This document shows, piece by piece, positions 102 through 8,779 of a stretch of 64,000 bases of DNA. The notes under the pieces were generated by a model. It worked only from the letters and a program-made list of their open reading frames with translations. It was not told the origin of the DNA and searched no databases. How positions within the stretch are numbered: position 1 is the stretch's first letter; every line of letters starts with the position of its first letter. Position numbers and translations under genes: made by a program. Source of the stretch: Candidatus Poribacteria bacterium (GTDB lineage: Bacteria > Poribacteria > WGA-4E > GCA-2687025); the NCBI GenBank assembly GCA_026004875.1, contig BPJZ01000001.1, positions 1-64,000 of the forward strand. The letters run 5' to 3'.

Positions 102-144
102 GGGGTGTCCGAGAGGGGATTGATGATGCCCGTTATCTGGAGCT

Positions 145-177
145 GCTTCGACGCAAGCGTCCCGATCGAGTCGAAGC
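145..177. other. Hairpin just downstream of the array end: 8-bp stem GCTTCGAC/GTCGAAGC with a 17-nt loop.
   Basis: Perfect inverted repeat at 145-152 and 170-177, read directly from the sequence. Confidence 0.4.
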
Positions 178-346
178 GCTCCTTGGGGACATCCCCCCTT
201 ACAGCTTTCGGATTGAGGAGTATTGGACTCGCGAGACGGTGTGAGCTTTGACGCCTGGCGCTGGCAGGTGGCGCGAGAAATTCTCAGAGTGGAAGACGAA
301 CCCGCCCGCTGAGTTGAGTACCTTCCCATTGCGCTTGAGGGCGCAA

Positions 347-373
347 GTAGATAGCCTCTCTAATAGAGAAAAC
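347..373 (+). repeat. Degenerate CRISPR-repeat-like relic (GTAGATAGCCTCTCTAATAGAGAAAAC).
   Basis: 10 of the first 11 nt match the repeat start GTTGATAGCCT, and it ends ...AAAAC. Overall ~60-65% identity with about 3 nt deleted. Same orientation as the array, 245 nt downstream of the last intact repeat. Weaker repeat-like fragments sit at 113-123 (gaggggattga) and 208-218 (cggattgagga). A short match of this quality is expected about once by chance in 64 kb. Confidence 0.3.
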
Positions 374-395
374 CGATGGATAAGGAGGTTCCAAA

Positions 396-1342
396 ATGGG
401 AGTCATCCAGAAGGTCGCTTCCCTAGGAGCAGGACTTGCTTTAGCTGGAGGGTTGAACCTCTTGGCAGTCGGTCAGCAGTTTGTAACCGACGGATTAGTC
501 GGTTACTGGAGCATGGACGCGGTTGTCGGGGATCTTCTGTCGAAGACGCCGTCGGCGAACACCACGGAACGATCGTGGACGGAGCGCTTGCGATCGCCCA
601 GGGAAAAATTGGAAACGCCCTCCAGTTCGACGGAAGTGGAGTGCACATCAGAGTTGCCGACCCGGAGGCGTTCGTCGCCAACGCAGATTTCACTTGGTGT
701 GCCTGGATTAACACCTCGAACCCTGGAGGGGGTATTCTTGCCAAGACCTCACCGGATCCCGGGTCCGACGTTCAGGGCGCCAAAACGCTCTTTCTTGACG
801 GAGGGCTTCTCGTCTTCGACGTCGGGTGGGTAGGAGCCGTAGAAGGGGTCACTCCCGTAGCCGACGGGAGATGGCATTATGTTTCAGTGACCGTCACGCT
901 GGGAGGTGCCGCAGACACCATTCAGTTTTACGTAGATGGGGCCCTGGACGCTCAAGGTCAACTTAATGTAGATCAATTCCCCGAGGAAGGATTCCCCATT
1001 CATATCGGTCTGGACCCTCGAGTTCCTGGCGAACCGATCTCAGTTCCGTTCACCGGTCTTATCGATGAAGTCGCCATTTACGATCGGGCGCTCTCGGAGA
1101 ACGAGATCGCCAACAATGCGGCTTCGACCGCAGGGCCGGCCTTGGCAGTAGGCCCCAAGGAAAGTTGGCAACCGTGTGGGCTCGGTGGAAAGCGTACTAG
1201 CCCAGGATCCACACGTGTCCAGGTGTGGACGCACCTGGACACGTGTGGCGCACTTGAGGGTCGGGTTGCGATATGGGACGAGCGCACGGTTAAACATCCG
1301 TCGGATTCCCCCATCGACCAACTGGGCGATCCAACGCCTTAG
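396..1342 (+). CDS. Secreted LamG (concanavalin-like lectin/glucanase) domain protein. One frameshift near 535-545 moves it from the frame of ORF 396..833 into the frame of ORF 248..1342.
   Basis: AAGGAGG RBS at 382-388, 7 nt before the ATG at 396. N-terminal signal-like segment MGVIQKVASLGAGLALAGGL. The stretch GLVGYWSMD...then...SVEDAVGEHHGTIVDGALAIAQGKIGNALQFDGSGVHIRV...DGRWHYVSVTV...IQFYVDGAL matches the LamG consensus (YW-FDE...G.A....G..GNAL.FDG...V.V) across the frame junction. The C-terminal 60 aa after the LamG domain look non-protein-like. Confidence 0.6.
1209..1248. repeat. Perfect 17-bp inverted repeat with a 6-nt spacer (CCACACGTGTCCAGGTG tggacg CACCTGGACACGTGTGG).
   Basis: Reverse complement of arm 1 (1209-1225) equals arm 2 (1232-1248) exactly. 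Each arm carries a CACGTG core. It lies in the doubtful 3' tail of the LamG ORF. Confidence 0.8.
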
Positions 1343-1586
1343 AAGTTGGTCCCCTCCGGGGAAGTATGCGGTTCTTCGCACTCGATCTTGGGTAGCCTGT
1401 TTTTTCGGTCTCATCCAATGCAAAGCGTCAGCTTTACCCTTCTCTGTGTACACAAGTTGTCTGGCGTAATTACCCCCCGGAGAACCTGGGGGCCTCAACA
1501 AGTAGAGTCGTCCACCGATTCAACGCCCTGACCTGTCTCGCTCCCTTTTTCGTGCTCGGGTAGGCCGAGACAATAGGAAAATCAAG

Positions 1587-3651
1587 TTGAAGCGCAGAGA
1601 AATTTCTTCTTCCTTTCGTCTCTTCTGGGTGTACTCGATTGGATTCTTCCTAATCGTTTCTAATGCCTACTGGCTTACAGTCACCAGTGAGCTAATGGAG
1701 CCACAAAACCTATTAACGTTTGTTTCACTATTTTTCAGCGCATTATTTTCACTGTTTTTTGTTATTGTACTCGATCGATTGTGGAAAGCAATCACGCCGT
1801 TCAATGGACTTTCCCCACAAGAGACGCTGGGGCTGTACATCATGACCGTCATGACGGGGACGGTAGGCGGTCATACACTCATGACGTTTCTGATCGGTAC
1901 AATCTCTCATCCTTACTGGTTCGCAACACCTGAGAACGAATGGGCAAATCTTTTTTGGGCATATATTCCCAAAGGATTTACTCCAGACCCGCAGGTTCTT
2001 AAAGGGTATTTTTACGGCCGGTCGACCTTATATACTTGGGAACACCTTCGAGGTTGGCTAGTTCCTGTTCTTTTTTGGACCTTCTTTATCGCCCTCATCT
2101 GGTGGCTCTTCTCTGTCTGAACACTTTGATCCGCGCGCAGTGGACCGTTCGAGAAAAGTTGGCTTACCCGATTATCCAGCTCCCCGTTGCCATGGCTACC
2201 GGCGGAGGAGCCTTCTGGCGTAGCCGAGCGATGTGGAGCGGATGTCTCTTCGCAGGGATGCTGGAGCTTCTGGTCGGACTCCATTATCTTTACCCCTCGA
2301 TCCCTGCCCCTCGACTGACGGGTTTGTCCCTCGAACCGCTCTTCGCGAGAAGCCATGGAACACCATCGGTTGGGTTCCAGTGAACATCTTTCCCTTCATC
2401 GTAGGGCTCACCTACTTCATGCCGCTAGAGCTCTCCTTTTCTGCATGGGTCTTTTATCTTTTGGAAAGGCGGAGCGAGTCATTCGGCTGGGCATGCTGGG
2501 CCATGTCGAGCTTTACGCTTCAGAACGCGCCGGGGGTGCTTGGATTGCGGTAGGTTTATTAGCACTCTGGGGCACACGTCGCCACCTGTGCGAGGCCTTT
2601 CGAAGGGCGCTCTCCCACGAGGTGAGGGAGGAGAGAACCGATCCTCTTAGCTACCAAACTGCCCTCTTTGGCTTCCTCGGTGGTCTTCTTCTGTTCTCTT
2701 TTCTCTCGTTTAAAGCGGGGATGACGGCGGGAGCAATCGGCGGTTTTATCTGTCTTTACCTTGTAATGAGTATCGGCGTCGCGCGAGTAAGAGCCGAGTT
2801 TGGTCCTCCCTCTCACGAGATCCTCGCTCTCGACCCAGGGCGGTTAATGACCCTCTTGTGGGCACTCGCCGACTGGGCTCGGCTAATCTGACAGTACTTT
2901 TCTTTTTATTACTGGCTGAACCGGCTCAATGTAGCCCATCCCATGCCCAACCAGTTAGAGGCGTTCAAGATCGCAGAGCGAGTTCGGATTCCTTTACGGC
3001 GTTTAGTCCCCTTAATTCTGATCTCCACAGTGCTAGGAACGCTCGCCTCTTTTTGGGCCTATCTGCACCTGATGTATCACGTGGGGGCCCTAACCGTACA
3101 CGGCTACTTGATCGGGGATCGGCGAGGAGACCTTCGGCGAGCGACTCCAACGGTGGTTGAACAATCCGGAACCTCCTAACCGGCTGCCCTGAAGTCTTTA
3201 GGGTTTGGATTTCTGGCCACCTGGGTTCTCTACCTCTCCGTCAGCGATTTATCTGGTGGCCCCTCCACCCCATTGGATACGTGATGACGGCCCGCCACCT
3301 GGGGTGGATTGGCGGACTTCTGGTTCTCCGTGTTTCTTGGGTGGGGTAATTAAGGCCGTCTTCCTTTCCCTTTTTGGGTTCCGCGCACACCGGACGGCCA
3401 TTCCCTTCTTTCTGGGTCTGGTAATGGGTGACTACGTCATGACAGCCATTTGGAGCCTGATCGGAGCGATCTTCGGCACTCCTGTTTTCGTTCTCTGGTC
3501 CCCTAAGAGAGCCTCCCCCCCGCGATCTATCTTCTACTCACAGTGCTGCCCAAGACAAGGCGGAGTTGATCGTAGAGATCCTCTGGGGGGTCGAAGGTCT
3601 CCATTTCGATCGGCTCTCGGCGAACCGTGCTGGCATAAAGAGCTAGGATGA
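1587..3651 (+). pseudogene. Large polytopic membrane protein of unknown family, broken into at least five frame-shifted pieces (ORFs 1587..2120, 2036..2383, 2233..2553, 2355..2891, 2943..3179, 3205..3651). The 5' part forms a low-GC (~40%) island.
   Basis: Consecutive ORFs on the same strand in rotating frames, each encoding Trp/Phe-rich transmembrane segments (e.g. FWVYSIGFFLIVSNAYWLTV, WVPVNIFPFIVGLTYFMPLELSFSAWVFYLL, FLGLVMGDYVMTAIWSLIGAIFG). GC content of 1560-2150 is about 40%, against about 65% for the window. Confidence 0.5.
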
Positions 3652-4581
3652 CCTTCCACTCATGGAGCGATTGTTCCAGATTCGTTCCCGGCACCTTGGA
3701 GTCGTCCTCTATCCAGTCGAGCATTGCTCGGTGGAAGGCCGTTTGTGCCCGGAGGTTGTCTGCGGCCCACTTTTCGTGGCCTTCAAACGGGGCCCCCTCG
3801 ATCCCTGCTGGGGAGGACGATCTCCCAGCGACCGAATTCTTCCCAATTCACGCGCCCTTGAGTGCAATAGGCCGCTACCCGAACGTGTTGATAATCCGTC
3901 GCGGGATCTCCGGCCTTGGGAGACACGTACCCGGTCGTCCAGAGCCCTCGAACCCCGTTTTCAAACACCAAATAGGCAGCGGTTGTTTCTGGTCCAGAAT
4001 GACGGGCTTCCAGTTCTCCAGGACCGGTCGCAGTGCCGTAAACGCTCTTCACGCGAGCGTCCCCGTTCAGGGACATGGCGTAGTTGAGGATATGGGTTCC
4101 TTGTCCGGAGACGTTCATCCCACAAGAGAGATCCAGAAGGATCACCGACCCAAGCCGTCCCGAGCGCACCGCTTCCTGACAACGCACCAGCGCAGGATAC
4201 CATCGGAATTGATGGCAGACGGCAAACTTCGTTCGGGTTTGTTCTTGAAGGGCGCAAAGCTGACGCCAGTCTCTCACCTCGGTCGCAATAGGCTTTTCAA
4301 CCGTGCAGGCAGGGACGCCAAGCTCGGAGACTAGAGTCATCAGTTCAACACGAGTGTCCGGCCAAGTGACGATATGAACCAGATCCGGGCGCTCTGCGGA
4401 GGATCATCTCCTCCGCGCTGGCATAAGCACGGAGACCAAACTCAGCAGCAACCCGATCTCGTCGTGTTGGCGTTGGAGCACAACACGCGACGACCTCCGC
4501 ATCAGGAATCTCTTCGTAGGCGCGAATGTGGGCGCGGCTACGACCTCCGCACCCGATCACCGCGACGCGGTATTTAGCCAT
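3527..4581 (-). CDS. Gfo/Idh/MocA-family NAD(P)-dependent oxidoreductase with two frameshifts.
   Basis: N-terminus MAKYRVAVIGCGGRSRAHIRAYEEIPDAEVVA carries the Rossmann GxGxxG motif. It continues into ORF 3783..4340 and a C-terminal piece in ORF 3527..3724. RBS GGGAGAA lies upstream of the ATG at 4581. Confidence 0.6.
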
Positions 4582-5034
4582 TGTCAGTTCTCCCTATCCC
4601 TTGGGGTCTGAGGAAACAGATCACGACCCCAACCTCCCGGAAGAATGAAGCAATTCTTGATAAAAAGAAATAGCAAACAGTGCCGAAGTGCTTCAAGGCT
4701 CCGCAGAACAAAAAGCCCAGTCTCAGAGCCGTCGCCCTGTCAACATGAGCAAGCCAGAAAATTCCAGCTGGATACATCGAGGGGCACTCTTCGCCTATTC
4801 GAAAATCGAAACTCCCACTTCCTTCCTGTTGTACCCGATGATATAAGTTGAGAGATCCTCAACAGAGGAGCGGAGAATCGGATGGACTAATCTACCACAG
4901 GAGTTCCACGGGTGTAGGGGCCGGCTTACTCCGCCACCGCTACAGAGTTAGTACAGTTCAAAGTTGTTCGAAGAGCAAAGGAGAACCCAACGAATGAGGA
5001 CGCTCATCACCTTTCTTGGGAAACAGCTGCGACG
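4582..5034 (+). promoter_or_regulatory. AT-rich (~45% GC) non-coding stretch immediately upstream of the orphan CRISPR repeat; candidate CRISPR leader.
   Basis: No credible ORF; the only one listed (4645..4851) is low-complexity. Composition stands out against the 65% GC background. It abuts the repeat at 5035 in the transcribed orientation. Contains a hairpin GGGGTC-n16-GACCCC at 4604-4631. Confidence 0.3.
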
Positions 5035-5065
5035 CGTTGATAGCCTACCTATGAGGGATTGAAAC
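5035..5065 (+). CRISPR. Orphan single CRISPR repeat, a perfect copy of the array repeat, with no neighbouring repeat within ±70 nt.
   Basis: 31/31 identity to the repeats at 5-35 and 71-101, in the same orientation. No second copy on either side at spacer distance. Confidence 0.8.
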
Positions 5066-5074
5066 TTCCATTAA

Positions 5075-5106
5075 GGTTCTGGAGCTCCCAGGACCGTTTT
5101 TTTTTT
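5075..5106 (+). terminator. Rho-independent terminator: 8-bp stem GGUUCUGG/CCAGGACC (one G-U pair), 5-nt loop, then U10.
   Basis: 5' arm 5075-5082, loop AGCTC at 5083-5087, 3' arm 5088-5095, T-run 5097-5106. Starts 10 nt after the orphan repeat. Confidence 0.7.
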
Positions 5107-5259
5107 CGAAATGCGCCTGCGGGGGAGACAAGACACCCCGAGACCCCCCTCCAGCCCAAGCCCAGAGCCCGAATAGACACAAATTCTGTTGTCCCAGGCA
5201 TGAGGAAGGGGTAGCATCCTTTCGCTCTTGCAGGCGTCGGTTTTCAGGAGGGGAAGAGA

Positions 5260-6548
5260 ATGCCAAACCAGGAAAAGCTCGCCCTTTACGGCGGTCCCAA
5301 GGCGGTTCCAGAACCGCTCCCCTCAGGGGCCGTCGTTCGAAGCCTGATCGGACGAAGAGGAGGTGGAGGCGGTCGCCGCCGTCCTGCGCTCCGGGAAGCT
5401 GTTCCGCGACGAGGACCACAAAAACAGTCAGTGCACCCAGTTTGAACGGGAAGCCTGTCAACTGCTGGGCGTCTCCTACGGGCTGCTGGTCAACAGCGGC
5501 ACCAATGCCCTCATCGCTGGGCTGATCGGGCTGGGAATTGGTCCCGGAGACGAAGTGATCGTCCCAGCGTACACCTATATCGCGACGGCGGCGGCGGTGG
5601 TGGCGGTCGGTGCGGTGCCGGTCATCGCCGAGATCGACGACTCGCTGGGCCTGGACCCGGAGGACGTCCGCCGAAAGATCACGCCCCACACCCGATGCAT
5701 CATTCCGGTTTCACATGCAGGGGGTCCCCTGTCGCCTGAACGCCCTGCTTCAGATCGCCGAGGAGCACCGCCTTCTGGTCTTGGAGGACTGCTGCCAGTC
5801 CATCGGAGCTCGGTACTTCGGGCGAGATGACCGGCAGCTTCGGGCACGCGGGAGCGTGGAGCCTGAACTACTACAAGGTGATCACCTGCGGCGAGGGCGG
5901 GTTGGTCTTCACCAACGACTATCGCGTCTTCGAGCGGAATCGCCTACTGCGCCGACCCCGGCCTGCCGATGTGGATGCGCGCCTACGCTCCCTGACGAGG
6001 TCCCCACGCTCGAGGAGCCGTTCAGCTACCTCTGCCTGCGCGGGGAACGAGCTGCTCGCGGCGATGCTGCGCGTCCAGCTCCGCAAGATGGAGCCGGCCC
6101 TTGCCCGGACCCGACGTGTCAAGCGGACCATCCGAGAGCCACCTGAACCCCCCGCGCCACTATCAGCTCCAGCATCAGGACGACCCGGAGGGGGACTGCG
6201 GCATCAGTCTGGCGCTGATCGTCGAGTCCCAAGCGGCGGCCAAGCGGTTTGCGGAGGCCCTCTCCGCCGAAGGAGTCCCGACCGGCACCGCCCACAATGA
6301 GGGCTTCCCCGATCGGCACATCTACCGTTACTGGGACTCGATCCTCCAGAAGCGGGCGCCCTCATCCGGGGCTCAACCCTTGGCGGCACCCGATGTACTC
6401 CGGCAAGGTGGAGTACGACCCGGAGATGTGCCCCCAAACGCTGGACATCCTGAATCGAACCCTGCGGATCGGCCTGAACGTGCGGATGACCGAGGAGCAC
6501 GCCCGACAGATCGCCGCGGCAATCAATAAGGTGGACGCTGCCCTTTAA
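5260..6548 (+). pseudogene. DegT/DnrJ/EryC1/StrS-family PLP-dependent sugar aminotransferase carrying at least four frameshifts.
   Basis: Pieces in ORFs 5260..5445, 5363..5830, 5610..6146, 5827..6300, 6101..6529 and 6249..6548. Motifs include ...SDEEEVEAVAAVLRSGKLF..., GDEVIVPAYTYIATAAAV, GSFGHAGAWSLNYYKVITCGEGGLVFTND and a C-terminal ...EEHARQIAAAINKV. Confidence 0.65.
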
Positions 6549-6560
6549 CGAACCCAGCGC

Positions 6561-7669
6561 TCAAATGAAGTCCGACTTCGTGTCGAACAGCGCCCGGTCC
6601 AGCGGGTACCAGGGGAGATAATCGGACTCCAAGGGGAGCGTCTCTCCCGTCTCGGCGGACTGGTAGCCCCGGAACAGAATCTCGTGGACGTGGAGCTGTC
6701 GCCGACCGGAACAGGTCGGTTCGACCCCCTCTCGGATACACCGGACAAAGTGCTCCATCATGTTTTCCGGATTCGGGTCGGCGGGAAACCCGAAAGACAC
6801 CCTTCCAGCTGCGCCATTCGTCGGGTTGAGCGCTCGGGATCGGTGCGGTTCCGTCCCGGCGCTGGAGGAGCACCCGCCCGTCGCCAGGAAGGACGATCGT
6901 CCCCTCGCGACCGAAGACGGTCGTCGAGTTCTCCACAAAGGCGGTGCCCCATAAGGACCGAACCACCGCGACCTGTCCCTCAGCGAACTCGATCAACAGG
7001 GCGACGTTATCGTCCACGTCGGAGAGCACCCGCTTCCCACCGCCGACAATCCGGTTGGGGATCAGCGTGTTGACCAATCCGGTAACGCGCTCGGCACGCC
7101 CCAGCAGACTGATCAGTCGGCTGATCGGATAGACCATACAGTCCAGCATCGCGCCGCCGTGGGCGATCGAACGATCGTAGTACCAGTTGTCGCGCGGGGG
7201 TCCGGGAATGTTCAAGCAGGCTTCCGCGCCGGTCAACTTGCCGACGATCTCCTCCCGGAGGAGCCGTTGTGCAGTGAGAATCGAACCGGTGTTGTCATAA
7301 GGGAGCTGCATATAGACCACACCGGCTCGATCGGCGGCGCGCACCATCGCAACGCAGTCCTCCCAGCGGGTGGCCATCGGCTTCTCGTTGAGGACGTGGA
7401 TCCCTCGTTCAAAAGCGGCCAAACAGACTTCAGCGTGAACCGAATGGGGCGTCGTGACGACCACCGCGTCGGGTCGCTCCCGATCCATCATCGCCTGGTA
7501 GTCGTCATAGTAAGCGGGAACGGAGAACTCCTCGGCTTTCCGGCGAGCGTTCTCCAGCCGACGGGCCACCGTGGCCACAAAGCGCACTCCCCGCCATCGG
7601 CTGGGCCATCCGAAAGAAGCGATCGCTGATCTGTCCGCTGCCGACCATTCCTAAGCGCAGTTCCGACAT
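6561..7669 (-). CDS. Gfo/Idh/MocA-family oxidoreductase with two frameshifts (near 7590 and 6800).
   Basis: N-terminus MSELRLGMVGSGQISDRFF after a GGAG RBS (start 7669). It continues into ORF 6523..7587 (VVVTTPHSVHAEVCLAAFERGIHVLNEKPMA) and the C-terminus lies in ORF 6561..6938 (FPADPNPENMMEHFVRCIREG). Confidence 0.65.
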
Positions 7670-7738
7670 AGTGGTTACTCCTTGGTGGTCTCACTTTTGT
7701 GGTATCGTATCCCAGAGAAGGGAATTTTCCGAGAGAGG

Positions 7739-8779
7739 ATGTCATTACCGAAGGGAGCGCTGGCCGTGAGCAGCACGCCGCCGATTCGAACGACCGTTGT
7801 CGGCAGCTATCCGGTCCCCGAATGGCTTCGGGTCTACCCGACGGAGCCCCACCTGCGCGATGCCACGCTAGTCGTTCTGAAGACGCAGGAGCTCGCCGGA
7901 ATCGACGTGGTGGCCGACGGGGAACTGTACCGCTTTGATGTAAACCATCCTGAAACGAACGGGATGATCGACTTCTTTATCGGCCAGATGGACGGGATTT
8001 CGCGTCGGATTTCCGTTCGCGACCGGCGGCGCTTCCAGCAGGACCCGGAGCTGCGCTATCGGGCGGAGCCGGCCGGCGTGGTCCACGGACCCATCGGCCC
8101 CCGGCGTGCTCGACCTGGAACGACATTACCGCCGTGTCCGCGCGCTGACCGATCGGCCCTTGAAGTTCACCGTCACCGGCCCGCATATGCTTTCCAAGGT
8201 GCTGCTGAACGACTACTACCCGAACCGCGCCGAACTGGCGATGGCGATCGCCGAGGTCCTCCGGGAGCAGGTGCAAGAGATCGACGCCCGAGATCGTCCA
8301 ACTGGACGAGGCGAATATCACCGGCCATCCCGAAGAGGGGGAATGGGCCGCCGCCGCGATCAACCACGTCCTGGACGCCATCCCTGGCGAAAAGGCGGTC
8401 CACCTCTGCTTTGGAAACTACGGCGGCCAGACGGTCCAAAAAGGAGGAGTACGCCCGCCTGCTGCCGTTCATGAACGCCCTCCATGCGGACCATCTGGTC
8501 CTGGAGTTCGCCCGCCGGCAGTACCGAGAGCTAGAAGTCCTCTTGGACCTGAACCCGCGCGTTCGAATCGGTCTAGGGGTGATCGACATCAAGGACAACG
8601 GGATCGAAACGCCGGAGACGGTCGCTGCCCGAATCGAACATGCCGCGGGCGTGTTGGGCGTCGAGCGGATCGCCTATGTGCATCCAGACTGCGGCTTCTG
8701 GATGCTCCCCCGGAACGTCGCCGACGGAAAAATGCGCTCGCTGGTTCAGGGACGAAACCTCTTTCTGGGGAAGTCCTAA
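7739..8779 (+). CDS. Short-form cobalamin-independent methionine synthase (MetE C-terminal-like, UroD/MetE superfamily) with three frameshifts.
   Basis: TTVVGSYPVPEWL...LKTQELAGIDVVADGELYR... in the frame of ORF 7682..8779, then the frame of ORF 8106..8474, then a third frame (IVQLDEANITGHPEEGEWAAAAINHVLDAIPGEKAVHLCFGNYGG), then back to ...LVLEFARRQYRELEVL...AYVHPDCGFWMLPR. RBS GAGAGAGG before the ATG at 7739. Confidence 0.6.
   Translation: MSLPKGALAVSSTPPIRTTVVGSYPVPEWLRVYPTEPHLRDATLVVLKTQELAGIDVVADGELYRFDVNHPETNGMIDFFIGQMDGISRRISVRDRRRFQQDPELRYRAEPAGVVHGPIGPRRARPGTTLPPCPRADRSALEVHRHRPAYAFQGAAERLLPEPRRTGDGDRRGPPGAGARDRRPRSSNWTRRISPAIPKRGNGPPPRSTTSWTPSLAKRRSTSALETTAARRSKKEEYARLLPFMNALHADHLVLEFARRQYRELEVLLDLNPRVRIGLGVIDIKDNGIETPETVAARIEHAAGVLGVERIAYVHPDCGFWMLPRNVADGKMRSLVQGRNLFLGKS

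Follow-up and report, generated by a model that had tools for sequence, protein, structure and literature searches.

A Solitary Perfect CRISPR Repeat with Its Own Intrinsic Terminator near an Array End in Candidatus Poribacteria: Possible Remnant or Seed of a Second Array

In the first 64 kb of a contig of Candidatus Poribacteria bacterium (the whole stretch of DNA that was analyzed, hereafter referred to as the window), a single perfect copy of a 30-nt CRISPR repeat stands alone, 4,934 nt beyond the last repeat of an array (the array repeat ends at 101 and the orphan starts at 5036), and is followed by a strong intrinsic terminator. We tentatively interpret this orphan as the remnant or the seed of a separate second array, served by the same system of the type I-B family to which the main array belongs.

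Repeat copies in the window

The 31-nt sequence CGTTGATAGCCTACCTATGAGGGATTGAAAC occurs exactly three times in the window, always on the + strand (5 to 35, 71 to 101, and 5035 to 5065), with 0.00 matches in shuffled sequence and no additional copies in the window when as many as three mismatches are tolerated. In its canonical form the repeat measures 30 nt, and each of its three copies (6 to 35, 72 to 101, and 5036 to 5065) is recognized by the Rfam model CRISPR-DR2 with 42.8 bits, compared to a gathering score of 37. The C at the 5' end of the 31-mer belongs to the flank, since no base preference is present at this position in 718 spacers of arrays with the same repeat. A possible meaning of this C and of the CG(C/A)CGC flank common to two of the copies was considered and rejected as chance, spacer ends showing no such bias.

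6 to 101, + strand: distal end of the main CRISPR array (repeat 6 to 35, 36-nt spacer 36 to 71, repeat 72 to 101)
5036 to 5065, + strand: orphan perfect 30-nt CRISPR repeat GTTGATAGCCTACCTATGAGGGATTGAAAC, an exact match that is also found by CRISPR-DR2

What is visible of the "array" amounts to merely two repeats, 66 nt apart, and one spacer at the very start of the contig, where the fragment runs off the left edge. The orphan is identical over 30 of 30 positions to both array repeats and to the repeats of 17 metagenome loci. The first-pass annotation had reported a perfect repeat copy about 4.9 kb from the array and in the same orientation, and exact search, shuffles, and the CRISPR-DR2 matches all bear this out. 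The orphan does not count as an array under a criterion of at least two repeats with a spacer of 35 to 39 nt between them; moreover, no second or degenerate repeat was found within the expected 66 nt on either side of it, where local alignment scores were at background. No protospacers were found in viral contigs for the true spacer, for the repeat-trailer junction, or for the 3' part of the 36 nt preceding the orphan. The perfect conservation of the orphan may fairly be read as a sign of recent origin or of selection.

Type, direction, and relatives of the repeat

The exact 30-nt repeat was not found in genome and viral collections and was present in the 17 metagenome loci mentioned above, with up to 177 repeats each. 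In three of the loci with the identical repeat (L004, L010, and L016), cas4, a type I-B cas1 (TIGR03641, E value of about 1e-135), and cas2 are followed by a leader of 120 to 200 nt and then by the array, a gene content that points to type I-B for the repeat family. Since cas4-cas1b-cas2 and the leader precede the identical repeats, the leader is expected upstream when the repeat reads GTTGAT...ATTGAAAC, and the + strand is, as judged from these loci, the crRNA strand in the window. In types I-B and III, an 8-nt 5' tag, AUUGAAAC, marks Cas6-processed crRNAs, in agreement with the inferred direction. The visible array piece is thus the old distal end of the array, beyond which, on the trailer side, the orphan is located.

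A scan with a degenerate repeat pattern returned 118 loci, from thermophilic Firmicutes, Atribacterota, Thermotogota, WOR-3, Chloroflexota, and archaea. Among the carriers of the identical 30-nt repeat, which come from the same kinds of samples, GC content extends from about 36% to flanks that are clearly GC-rich. In particular, one locus of "Ca. Caldatribacterium saccharofermentans" (L028) features a solo perfect repeat amid housekeeping genes; this genome also has two full arrays, and the 45 nt before the solo repeat are clearly homologous to the ends of their leaders. It follows that spacer-less leader-repeat loci exist in this repeat family. The orphan of the window shares with L028 the presence of one perfect repeat of the same family, the chromosomal location, the distance from cas genes, the non-coding DNA before the repeat, and the normal array orientation. 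However, different from L028, where the upstream 45 nt are leader homologous, the orphan is preceded by neither a detectable leader motif nor a promoter. A further solo repeat of the family lies between RecT and a DnaD-like gene in L088, which is the same as the IMG/VR viral contig L140.

Gaps of kilobase scale between repeats in the same direction also occur in the family. The short ones are IS elements (L016, L099, and L078), and the long ones, of 4.6 to 6.9 kb (L044, L100, and L116), consist of ordinary genes separating two arrays, the downstream array having a recognizable leader in at least L044 and L100. The window agrees with the latter three loci in repeat family and orientation and in the non-cas, non-mobile genes lying between the repeats; they hold several repeats and spacers on the downstream side, whereas the orphan is one repeat with no spacer. 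As in the IS-interrupted loci, perfect repeats in the same orientation flank a kilobase-scale gap. However, the gap of L016 holds the transposase of an IS3 element, with the terminal inverted repeats TGTAGTGGTCCCCA and a 3-bp duplication, and cuts a spacer of 35 nt in two; the block between the repeats of the window shows none of these and is made of ordinary genes.

The main array trailer and the block between the repeats

From the last array repeat to the DNA downstream of the orphan, the following features could be recognized, apart from those immediately adjoining the orphan.

102 to 395, + strand: decayed trailer of the main array, with correctly oriented repeat debris in three pieces
115 to 123, + strand: repeat debris GGGGATTGA in this trailer
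210 to 216, + strand: repeat debris GGATTGA in this trailer
347 to 373, + strand: degenerate terminal-type repeat GTAGATAGCCTCTCTAATAGAGAAAAC, with the 5' half kept and the 3' half diverged
396 to 1342, + strand: secreted LamG-domain protein gene (Laminin_G_3, 3.5e-22), in two overlapping open reading frames (ORFs) through an assembly frameshift
1587 to 3651, + strand: DUF6785/DUF6784 membrane protein gene, in at least four ORFs through frameshifts, 53% GC
3783 to 4581, - strand: GFO/IDH/MocA oxidoreductase gene with one frameshift, transcribed away from the orphan
5260 to 6548, + strand: DegT/DnrJ/EryC1 aminotransferase gene (KatS3mg115_0007) with several frameshifts, 65% GC

Outside the true repeats, the + strand of the 64 kb contains GGATTGA at only three further places and GATAGCCT at only four. 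Terminal repeats of the family typically retain their 5' half, which is the half kept at 347 to 373. The main array therefore ends in an aged trailer of its own, reaching the start codon of the LamG gene. Given this decayed trailer, the perfect repeat downstream falls outside the ageing series of the main array.

The ORF at 1587 to 2120 matches the second gene of the assembly, KatS3mg115_0002, with 100% identity, and the DegT gene is the first one with a composition typical of the rest of the window. The block between the repeats (102 to 5035) has a GC content of 55.2%, compared to 63.4 ± 1.7%, and its tetranucleotide correlation is 0.76, compared to 0.95 to 0.98 in all other 5-kb windows. The compositional deviation is strongest for the membrane protein gene and moderate for the LamG gene, and the GFO gene is 2.2 standard deviations low in GC content. 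A sharp compositional boundary at the orphan was upheld only in part, the adjoining GFO gene being merely 2.2 standard deviations low. It may simply be that a larger CRISPR-bearing island has the same composition as the block.

Within 102 to 5035, there was no gene for a transposase or integrase and no sign of terminal inverted repeats, a target duplication, or a split spacer. The block showed no similarity to phage or plasmid DNA, and the small ORFs gave no PHROG match. In a relative (L018), LamG and DUF6785 also lie next to each other, as conserved chromosomal synteny. The best non-self homologues of the flanking genes are only 59 to 69% identical, and around the closest ones the gene order matches partly (in L018, for LamG-DUF6785 only) or not at all, with no CRISPR at the position corresponding to the orphan.

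Contig and assembly context

The window starts at the contig start, and the leader and the cas genes of the main array lie off-contig. The contig holding KatS3mg115_0002 spans 196,932 bp, and the metagenome-assembled genome (MAG) is that of Candidatus Poribacteria bacterium (KatS3mg115), derived from a PacBio HiFi/metaFlye assembly of Katase hot-spring sediment (PMC9671151). Frameshifts break up nearly every gene in the first 9 kb, and changes of GC3 phase are scattered along the whole window rather than confined to the contig end; together, these features indicate that the frameshifts derive from low-coverage consensus and that the genes are not pseudogenes. The 64-kb window is devoid of cas genes throughout; in the remaining 59 kb to the right of the orphan, no cas genes or other CRISPR components occur, and the DNA is of housekeeping type. 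No tRNA genes, further RNA families, or island markers were found in the window.

The stretch upstream of the orphan

4582 to 5035, + strand: non-coding stretch, candidate leader, which is also the divergent-promoter region of the GFO gene
4994 to 5062, + strand: possible 22-codon ORF MRTLITFLGKQLRRVDSLPMRD, with AGGAGA about 8 to 9 nt before the ATG

The stretch upstream of the orphan had been described as AT-rich, non-coding, and leader-like. Its non-coding character is confirmed, with no ORF longer than 68 amino acids and no Pfam or PHROG match in 4582 to 5034, and so is its low GC content relative to the genome: these 453 nt rank among the lowest 0.9% of 453-nt windows, the window mean being 62.7%. 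In absolute terms, however, the GC content is 50.3%. Furthermore, the promoter of the GFO gene must sit inside the same stretch, which gives the low GC content a mundane explanation.

The search for leader features gave negative or ambiguous results. A blastn search with 4582 to 5035 revealed no similarity to leaders of identical-repeat arrays, while the leaders of L004 and L016 do match each other; similarity to heterologous leaders and trailers was likewise absent. A leader-end profile, for which the final 25 nt were taken from 31 true leaders across the wider family and which discriminates poorly, assigns the orphan junction a score of 0.3, within the overlap of leaders and spacer ends: 14% of spacer ends match or exceed this value, and 42% of true leaders score lower. 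No sigma-70-like promoter was found in 4582 to 5045 even at 8 of 12 matches, although the promoter type of the phylum itself may differ; a sigma-70-like site at 9 of 12 matches is present in 14 of 29 true leaders. The 22-codon ORF runs through the repeat, with its stop codon, TGA, inside GATTGAAAC; it has no family match and is probably fortuitous.

The terminator

5066 to 5106, + strand: trailer with intrinsic terminator, consisting of 9 nt (TTCCATTAA), a hairpin at 5075 to 5095, a G, and T10 at 5097 to 5106

The stem of the terminator pairs 5075 to 5082 with 5088 to 5095 (8 bp, of which 5 are G-C) around a 5-nt loop, and its folding energy is -13 kcal/mol (z = -3.25). No other run of at least eight T residues exists in the window when both strands are counted (128 kb of strand), and no second strong intrinsic terminator occurs in the 64 kb. 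The orphan terminator is thus real and exceptional for this genome. The 8-bp stem and the T10 run agree with the earlier description, which had placed the stem 10 nt past the repeat; it begins 9 nt past it. Some arrays of the repeat family likewise end with such a terminator, and TTCCATTAAGG weakly resembles the trailer junction of L016 (P of about 0.04). The T10 run is no less foreign to the native DNA than is the 4.9-kb block, which places the repeat and its terminator on the island side.

Alternative explanations

It is possible to hypothesize that the orphan is the original terminal repeat of the main array, together with its terminator, and that the 4.9-kb block was inserted or captured between neighboring repeats; in the capture version, homologous recombination would have taken place at repeats common with a donor genome (R-X-R). 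Several observations are in line with such a history: the block between the perfect repeats is the compositional outlier described above (55.2% GC and a correlation of 0.76), the identical repeat occurs in organisms from low to high GC content, so that matching donors exist, the repeat and its T10 terminator resemble the trailer of a CRISPR module that is alien to the native genome, the 3' flank of the orphan is weakly similar to the L016 trailer junction, and IS insertions into arrays of the family are known (L016, L099, and L078). However, the block begins, on its left, with the decayed trailer of an array, and the ageing of a single array would not leave a perfect repeat beyond decayed ones, nor does the block carry a transposase, an integrase, inverted repeats, a target duplication, a split spacer, or similarity to phages or plasmids. 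The LamG-DUF6785 pair is chromosomal and conserved in the relative L018, the outlier signal comes mainly from the membrane protein gene and, with the GFO gene 2.2 standard deviations low, shows no sharp boundary at the repeat, and such a composition may be common to the entire CRISPR island. We therefore consider this origin unlikely, and displacement by an insertion, which the first-pass annotation had offered as its alternative, is disfavored by the decayed trailer of the main array and by a block free of insertion-element marks. A more specific proposal, that the perfect repeats are recombination scars and that a foreign 4.9-kb piece, running from an array trailer to the next leader, was captured between adjacent repeats of the array, which the occurrence of one and the same 30-nt repeat in unrelated hot-spring organisms would have allowed, appears quite improbable. 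An assembly artefact, in which a chimeric long read or a mis-join placed the left 5 kb, derived from another organism with the same repeat, beside the true array end of this genome, would fit a low-abundance MAG from a metaFlye HiFi assembly (PMC9671151), a contig so full of frameshifts that very low coverage is implied, and an anomalous block that corresponds to the first 5 kb of the contig, less than the length of one read, and differs in composition. On the other hand, a 30-nt repeat cannot yield an assembler overlap, a random ligation chimera is not expected to break right beside a CRISPR repeat, the frameshift-like phase changes run all along the window and not only at its end, and the best homologues of the block are from Poribacteria, as is the MAG; only a slight probability can be granted to this explanation.

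Functions independent of an array were weighed as well. The solo repeat could be a functional small-RNA gene, acting either as a decoy for Cas6/Cas7, similarly to Racr, or as a crRNA-like regulator, in which case a type I-B complex would be guided to a partly matching promoter by the candidate guide sequence TTCCATTAAGGTTCTGG. The unit is compact, with a terminator 9 nt past a perfectly conserved repeat; solitary repeats of the same family occur in the virus L088 (L140), solitary repeat units are known as RNA anti-CRISPRs (PMC10651486), and crRNA-like regulators are widespread (bioRxiv 10.1101/2023.03.03.530964). As with Racr (PMC10651486), a single intergenic repeat could give rise to a short Cas6-binding RNA, with L088 (L140) as a viral case in the same family; different from Racr, the orphan is not on a mobile element (virus, prophage, or plasmid), lies 4.9 kb from the repeats of the host's own array, and has no promoter-like site immediately upstream. 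Neither mobile-element genes nor similarity to such elements were found around it, and a decoy beside the host's own array would harm host immunity. As for the regulator version, crRNA-like mini-arrays usually consist of two degenerate repeats around a pseudo-spacer that partly matches the promoter of a cas or toxin gene, and they sit inside cas loci (Shmakov et al. 2023, 10.1101/2023.03.03.530964). The orphan resembles CreA of CreTA and the regulatory mini-arrays in being a standalone repeat near a CRISPR locus, but it is one perfect repeat, with no matching target and no cas genes in the window, where none occurs within 59 kb to the right. No second repeat-like element forms a mini-array with it, no promoter was found upstream, and the 41-nt "pseudo-spacer" has no above-chance match in the window, the longest matches of 5066 to 5110 to the rest of the window being of 11 to 12 nt, at chance level. 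Overall, we assign little probability to a small-RNA function. It is extremely improbable that the unit is instead a small protein gene (22 amino acids, 4994 to 5062) with its own ribosome-binding site and terminator, overlapping a captured repeat. The AGGAGA about 8 to 9 nt before the ATG is like the sites of neighboring real genes, and the stop codon lies within the repeat with the terminator 12 nt further; however, homologues and family matches are absent, such an arrangement would arise by chance in a 450-nt intergenic region with a probability of roughly 0.1 (a rough estimate), and the perfect nucleotide identity of the repeat points to an origin at the DNA level rather than to coding constraint.

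A possible second array reduced to one repeat

The reading of the orphan as the remnant or the seed of a second array, which we tentatively prefer, takes into account that the layout of the window matches the class of L044, L100, and L116, with the second array cut to one repeat, and that the debris-bearing trailer of the main array argues for the orphan being a separate unit. According to this reading, three ordinary genes would separate the second array from the main array, which lies upstream and has the same orientation, and its anatomy would comprise a candidate AT-rich leader, one perfect repeat, 9 nt, and an intrinsic terminator of the array type. A small array may have lost all of its spacers through repeat-repeat recombination or may never have gained any. 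Counting against this reading, a relic free of selection is expected to decay, yet the orphan copy is perfect.

If the unit is transcribed, Cas6 would be predicted to cut 8 nt before the 3' end of the repeat (at 5058), giving a product of about 49 nt made up of the AUUGAAAC tag and the terminator hairpin. Since this predicted RNA has no foreign target, the orphan unit would provide no immunity at present. Yosef and colleagues reportedly found in 2012 that, in E. coli, the smallest substrate that can acquire spacers consists of a leader and a single repeat. In the window, a spacer could be regained at 5035/5036 only if Cas1-Cas2-Cas4 still recognized the candidate leader junction. The spacer-less minimal locus proposed in the first-pass annotation is the most plausible architecture, with L028 as a precedent, even though the upstream stretch, for which neither similarity to leaders nor a promoter was found, is no more than a candidate leader.

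Implications

Orphan repeats, leader-plus-one-repeat loci, secondary arrays, and solitary repeat units have all been described already. Should the orphan be a leader-repeat seed that is still live, it would offer an example from nature of an array of size zero and would inform on the birth and rebirth of arrays; should it be a relic, it would record how an array collapsed where a CRISPR-bearing island ends. In both cases, it would represent an expected by-product of CRISPR array dynamics and not a new mechanism. More broadly, distant hot-spring lineages have identical repeats in common, and these could mediate recombination and the capture of genes; if the capture reading were true, CRISPR arrays would serve as landing pads for genes that pass from one phylum to another.

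Decayed trailer of the main array and composition of the adjoining block

Downstream of the last perfect repeat of the main array (72-101, + strand), remnants of the repeat could be recognized at three locations.

Repeat-derived elements 3' of the last perfect array repeat
115-123, repeat debris, GGGGATTGA
210-216, repeat debris, GGATTGA
347-373, degenerate repeat

The stretch from 102 to 395 is a decayed trailer of the main array, extending as far as the start codon of the LamG gene. The entire block that separates the array from the orphan repeat (102-5035) is atypical in composition, with 55% GC against 63% and a tetranucleotide correlation (r) of 0.76 against at least 0.95, and the DUF6785/6784 gene and the LamG gene contribute most to this signal. 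Close to the 3' end of LamG, we could also notice a perfect 17-nt inverted repeat (1209-1248; CCACACGTGTCCAGGTG / CACCTGGACACGTGTGG, with a 6-nt loop).

Nearly all genes at the left end (396-8779), namely, LamG, DUF6785/6784, both GFO genes, and DegT, the last with at least four frameshifts, are split by frameshifts, as is a MetE-like gene of the same region, the middle of which is garbled. GC3-phase switches occur throughout the 64-kb window. Together with the gene splitting, which apparently extends over the whole window, they are more in keeping with a HiFi/metaFlye consensus of low coverage than with true pseudogenes.

Between 7600 and 64000, some of the long open reading frames (ORFs) gave PADLOC matches to PbeA (best 4e-49), to the MADS components mad3 and mad8, and to a type IV methyl-directed restriction enzyme, and Pfam matches to a ResIII helicase and DUF790 were found there as well; the ORFs with these matches are possible defense genes.

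Solo repeats of the same family

A solo repeat is also present in Ca. Caldatribacterium saccharofermentans (locus L028, 1045-1074, minus strand), next to genes for SAICAR synthetase and histidyl-tRNA synthetase, and represents a genuine locus made of a leader and a single repeat. Another solo repeat of the family lies in a viral contig (L088, 3234-3263, the same as L140, 6899-6928), where it is flanked by RecT and a DnaD-like gene, and is a candidate RNA anti-CRISPR. On its 3' side there is an odd short tandem motif of the CGAAAAACGAACG type.

Metagenome loci carrying the identical repeat

Among the 17 metagenome loci with the exact 30-nt repeat (L001-L017), the array of L016 is interrupted by an IS3-family element (2785-4081) with inverted repeats TGTAGTGGTCCCCA and a 3-bp duplication, "gaa." The element sits within a 35-nt spacer, divided 19 + 19. 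The segment past the last perfect repeat of this locus (4243-4330) begins with 11 nt and the last 10 nt of a repeat, and a 37-nt spacer then leads to a terminal repeat that is degenerate. Those first 11 nt (TGTACATTAAG, then G) weakly resemble the 11 nt 3' of the orphan repeat in the window (TTCCATTAAGG).

On the array strand of L003, a different second CRISPR array (repeat GTCGCTCCCCCTCGCGGGGAGCGTGGATTGAAAC) begins about 36 nt past the end of the first and was observed approximately 40 to 140 nt beyond its last repeat. The array-adjacent 124 nt of the L005 upstream flank and the L008 downstream flank are exact reverse complements, which suggests an inversion polymorphism or one shared segment on which two arrays converge. 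The leader-adjacent cas2-like ORFs of L004 (1495-1800) and L016 (1920-2237) gave matches on the strand opposite cas4-cas1, L010 being different in this respect, and reflect either an unusual gene order or a quirk of ORF calling.

Arrays with the identical repeat reach up to 177 repeats, and the DNA flanking them has a GC content as low as about 36% in some organisms and is clearly GC rich in others. The occurrence of an identical repeat in hosts of such widely differing flank GC implies that one I-B module has spread horizontally between hot-spring or thermophilic lineages.
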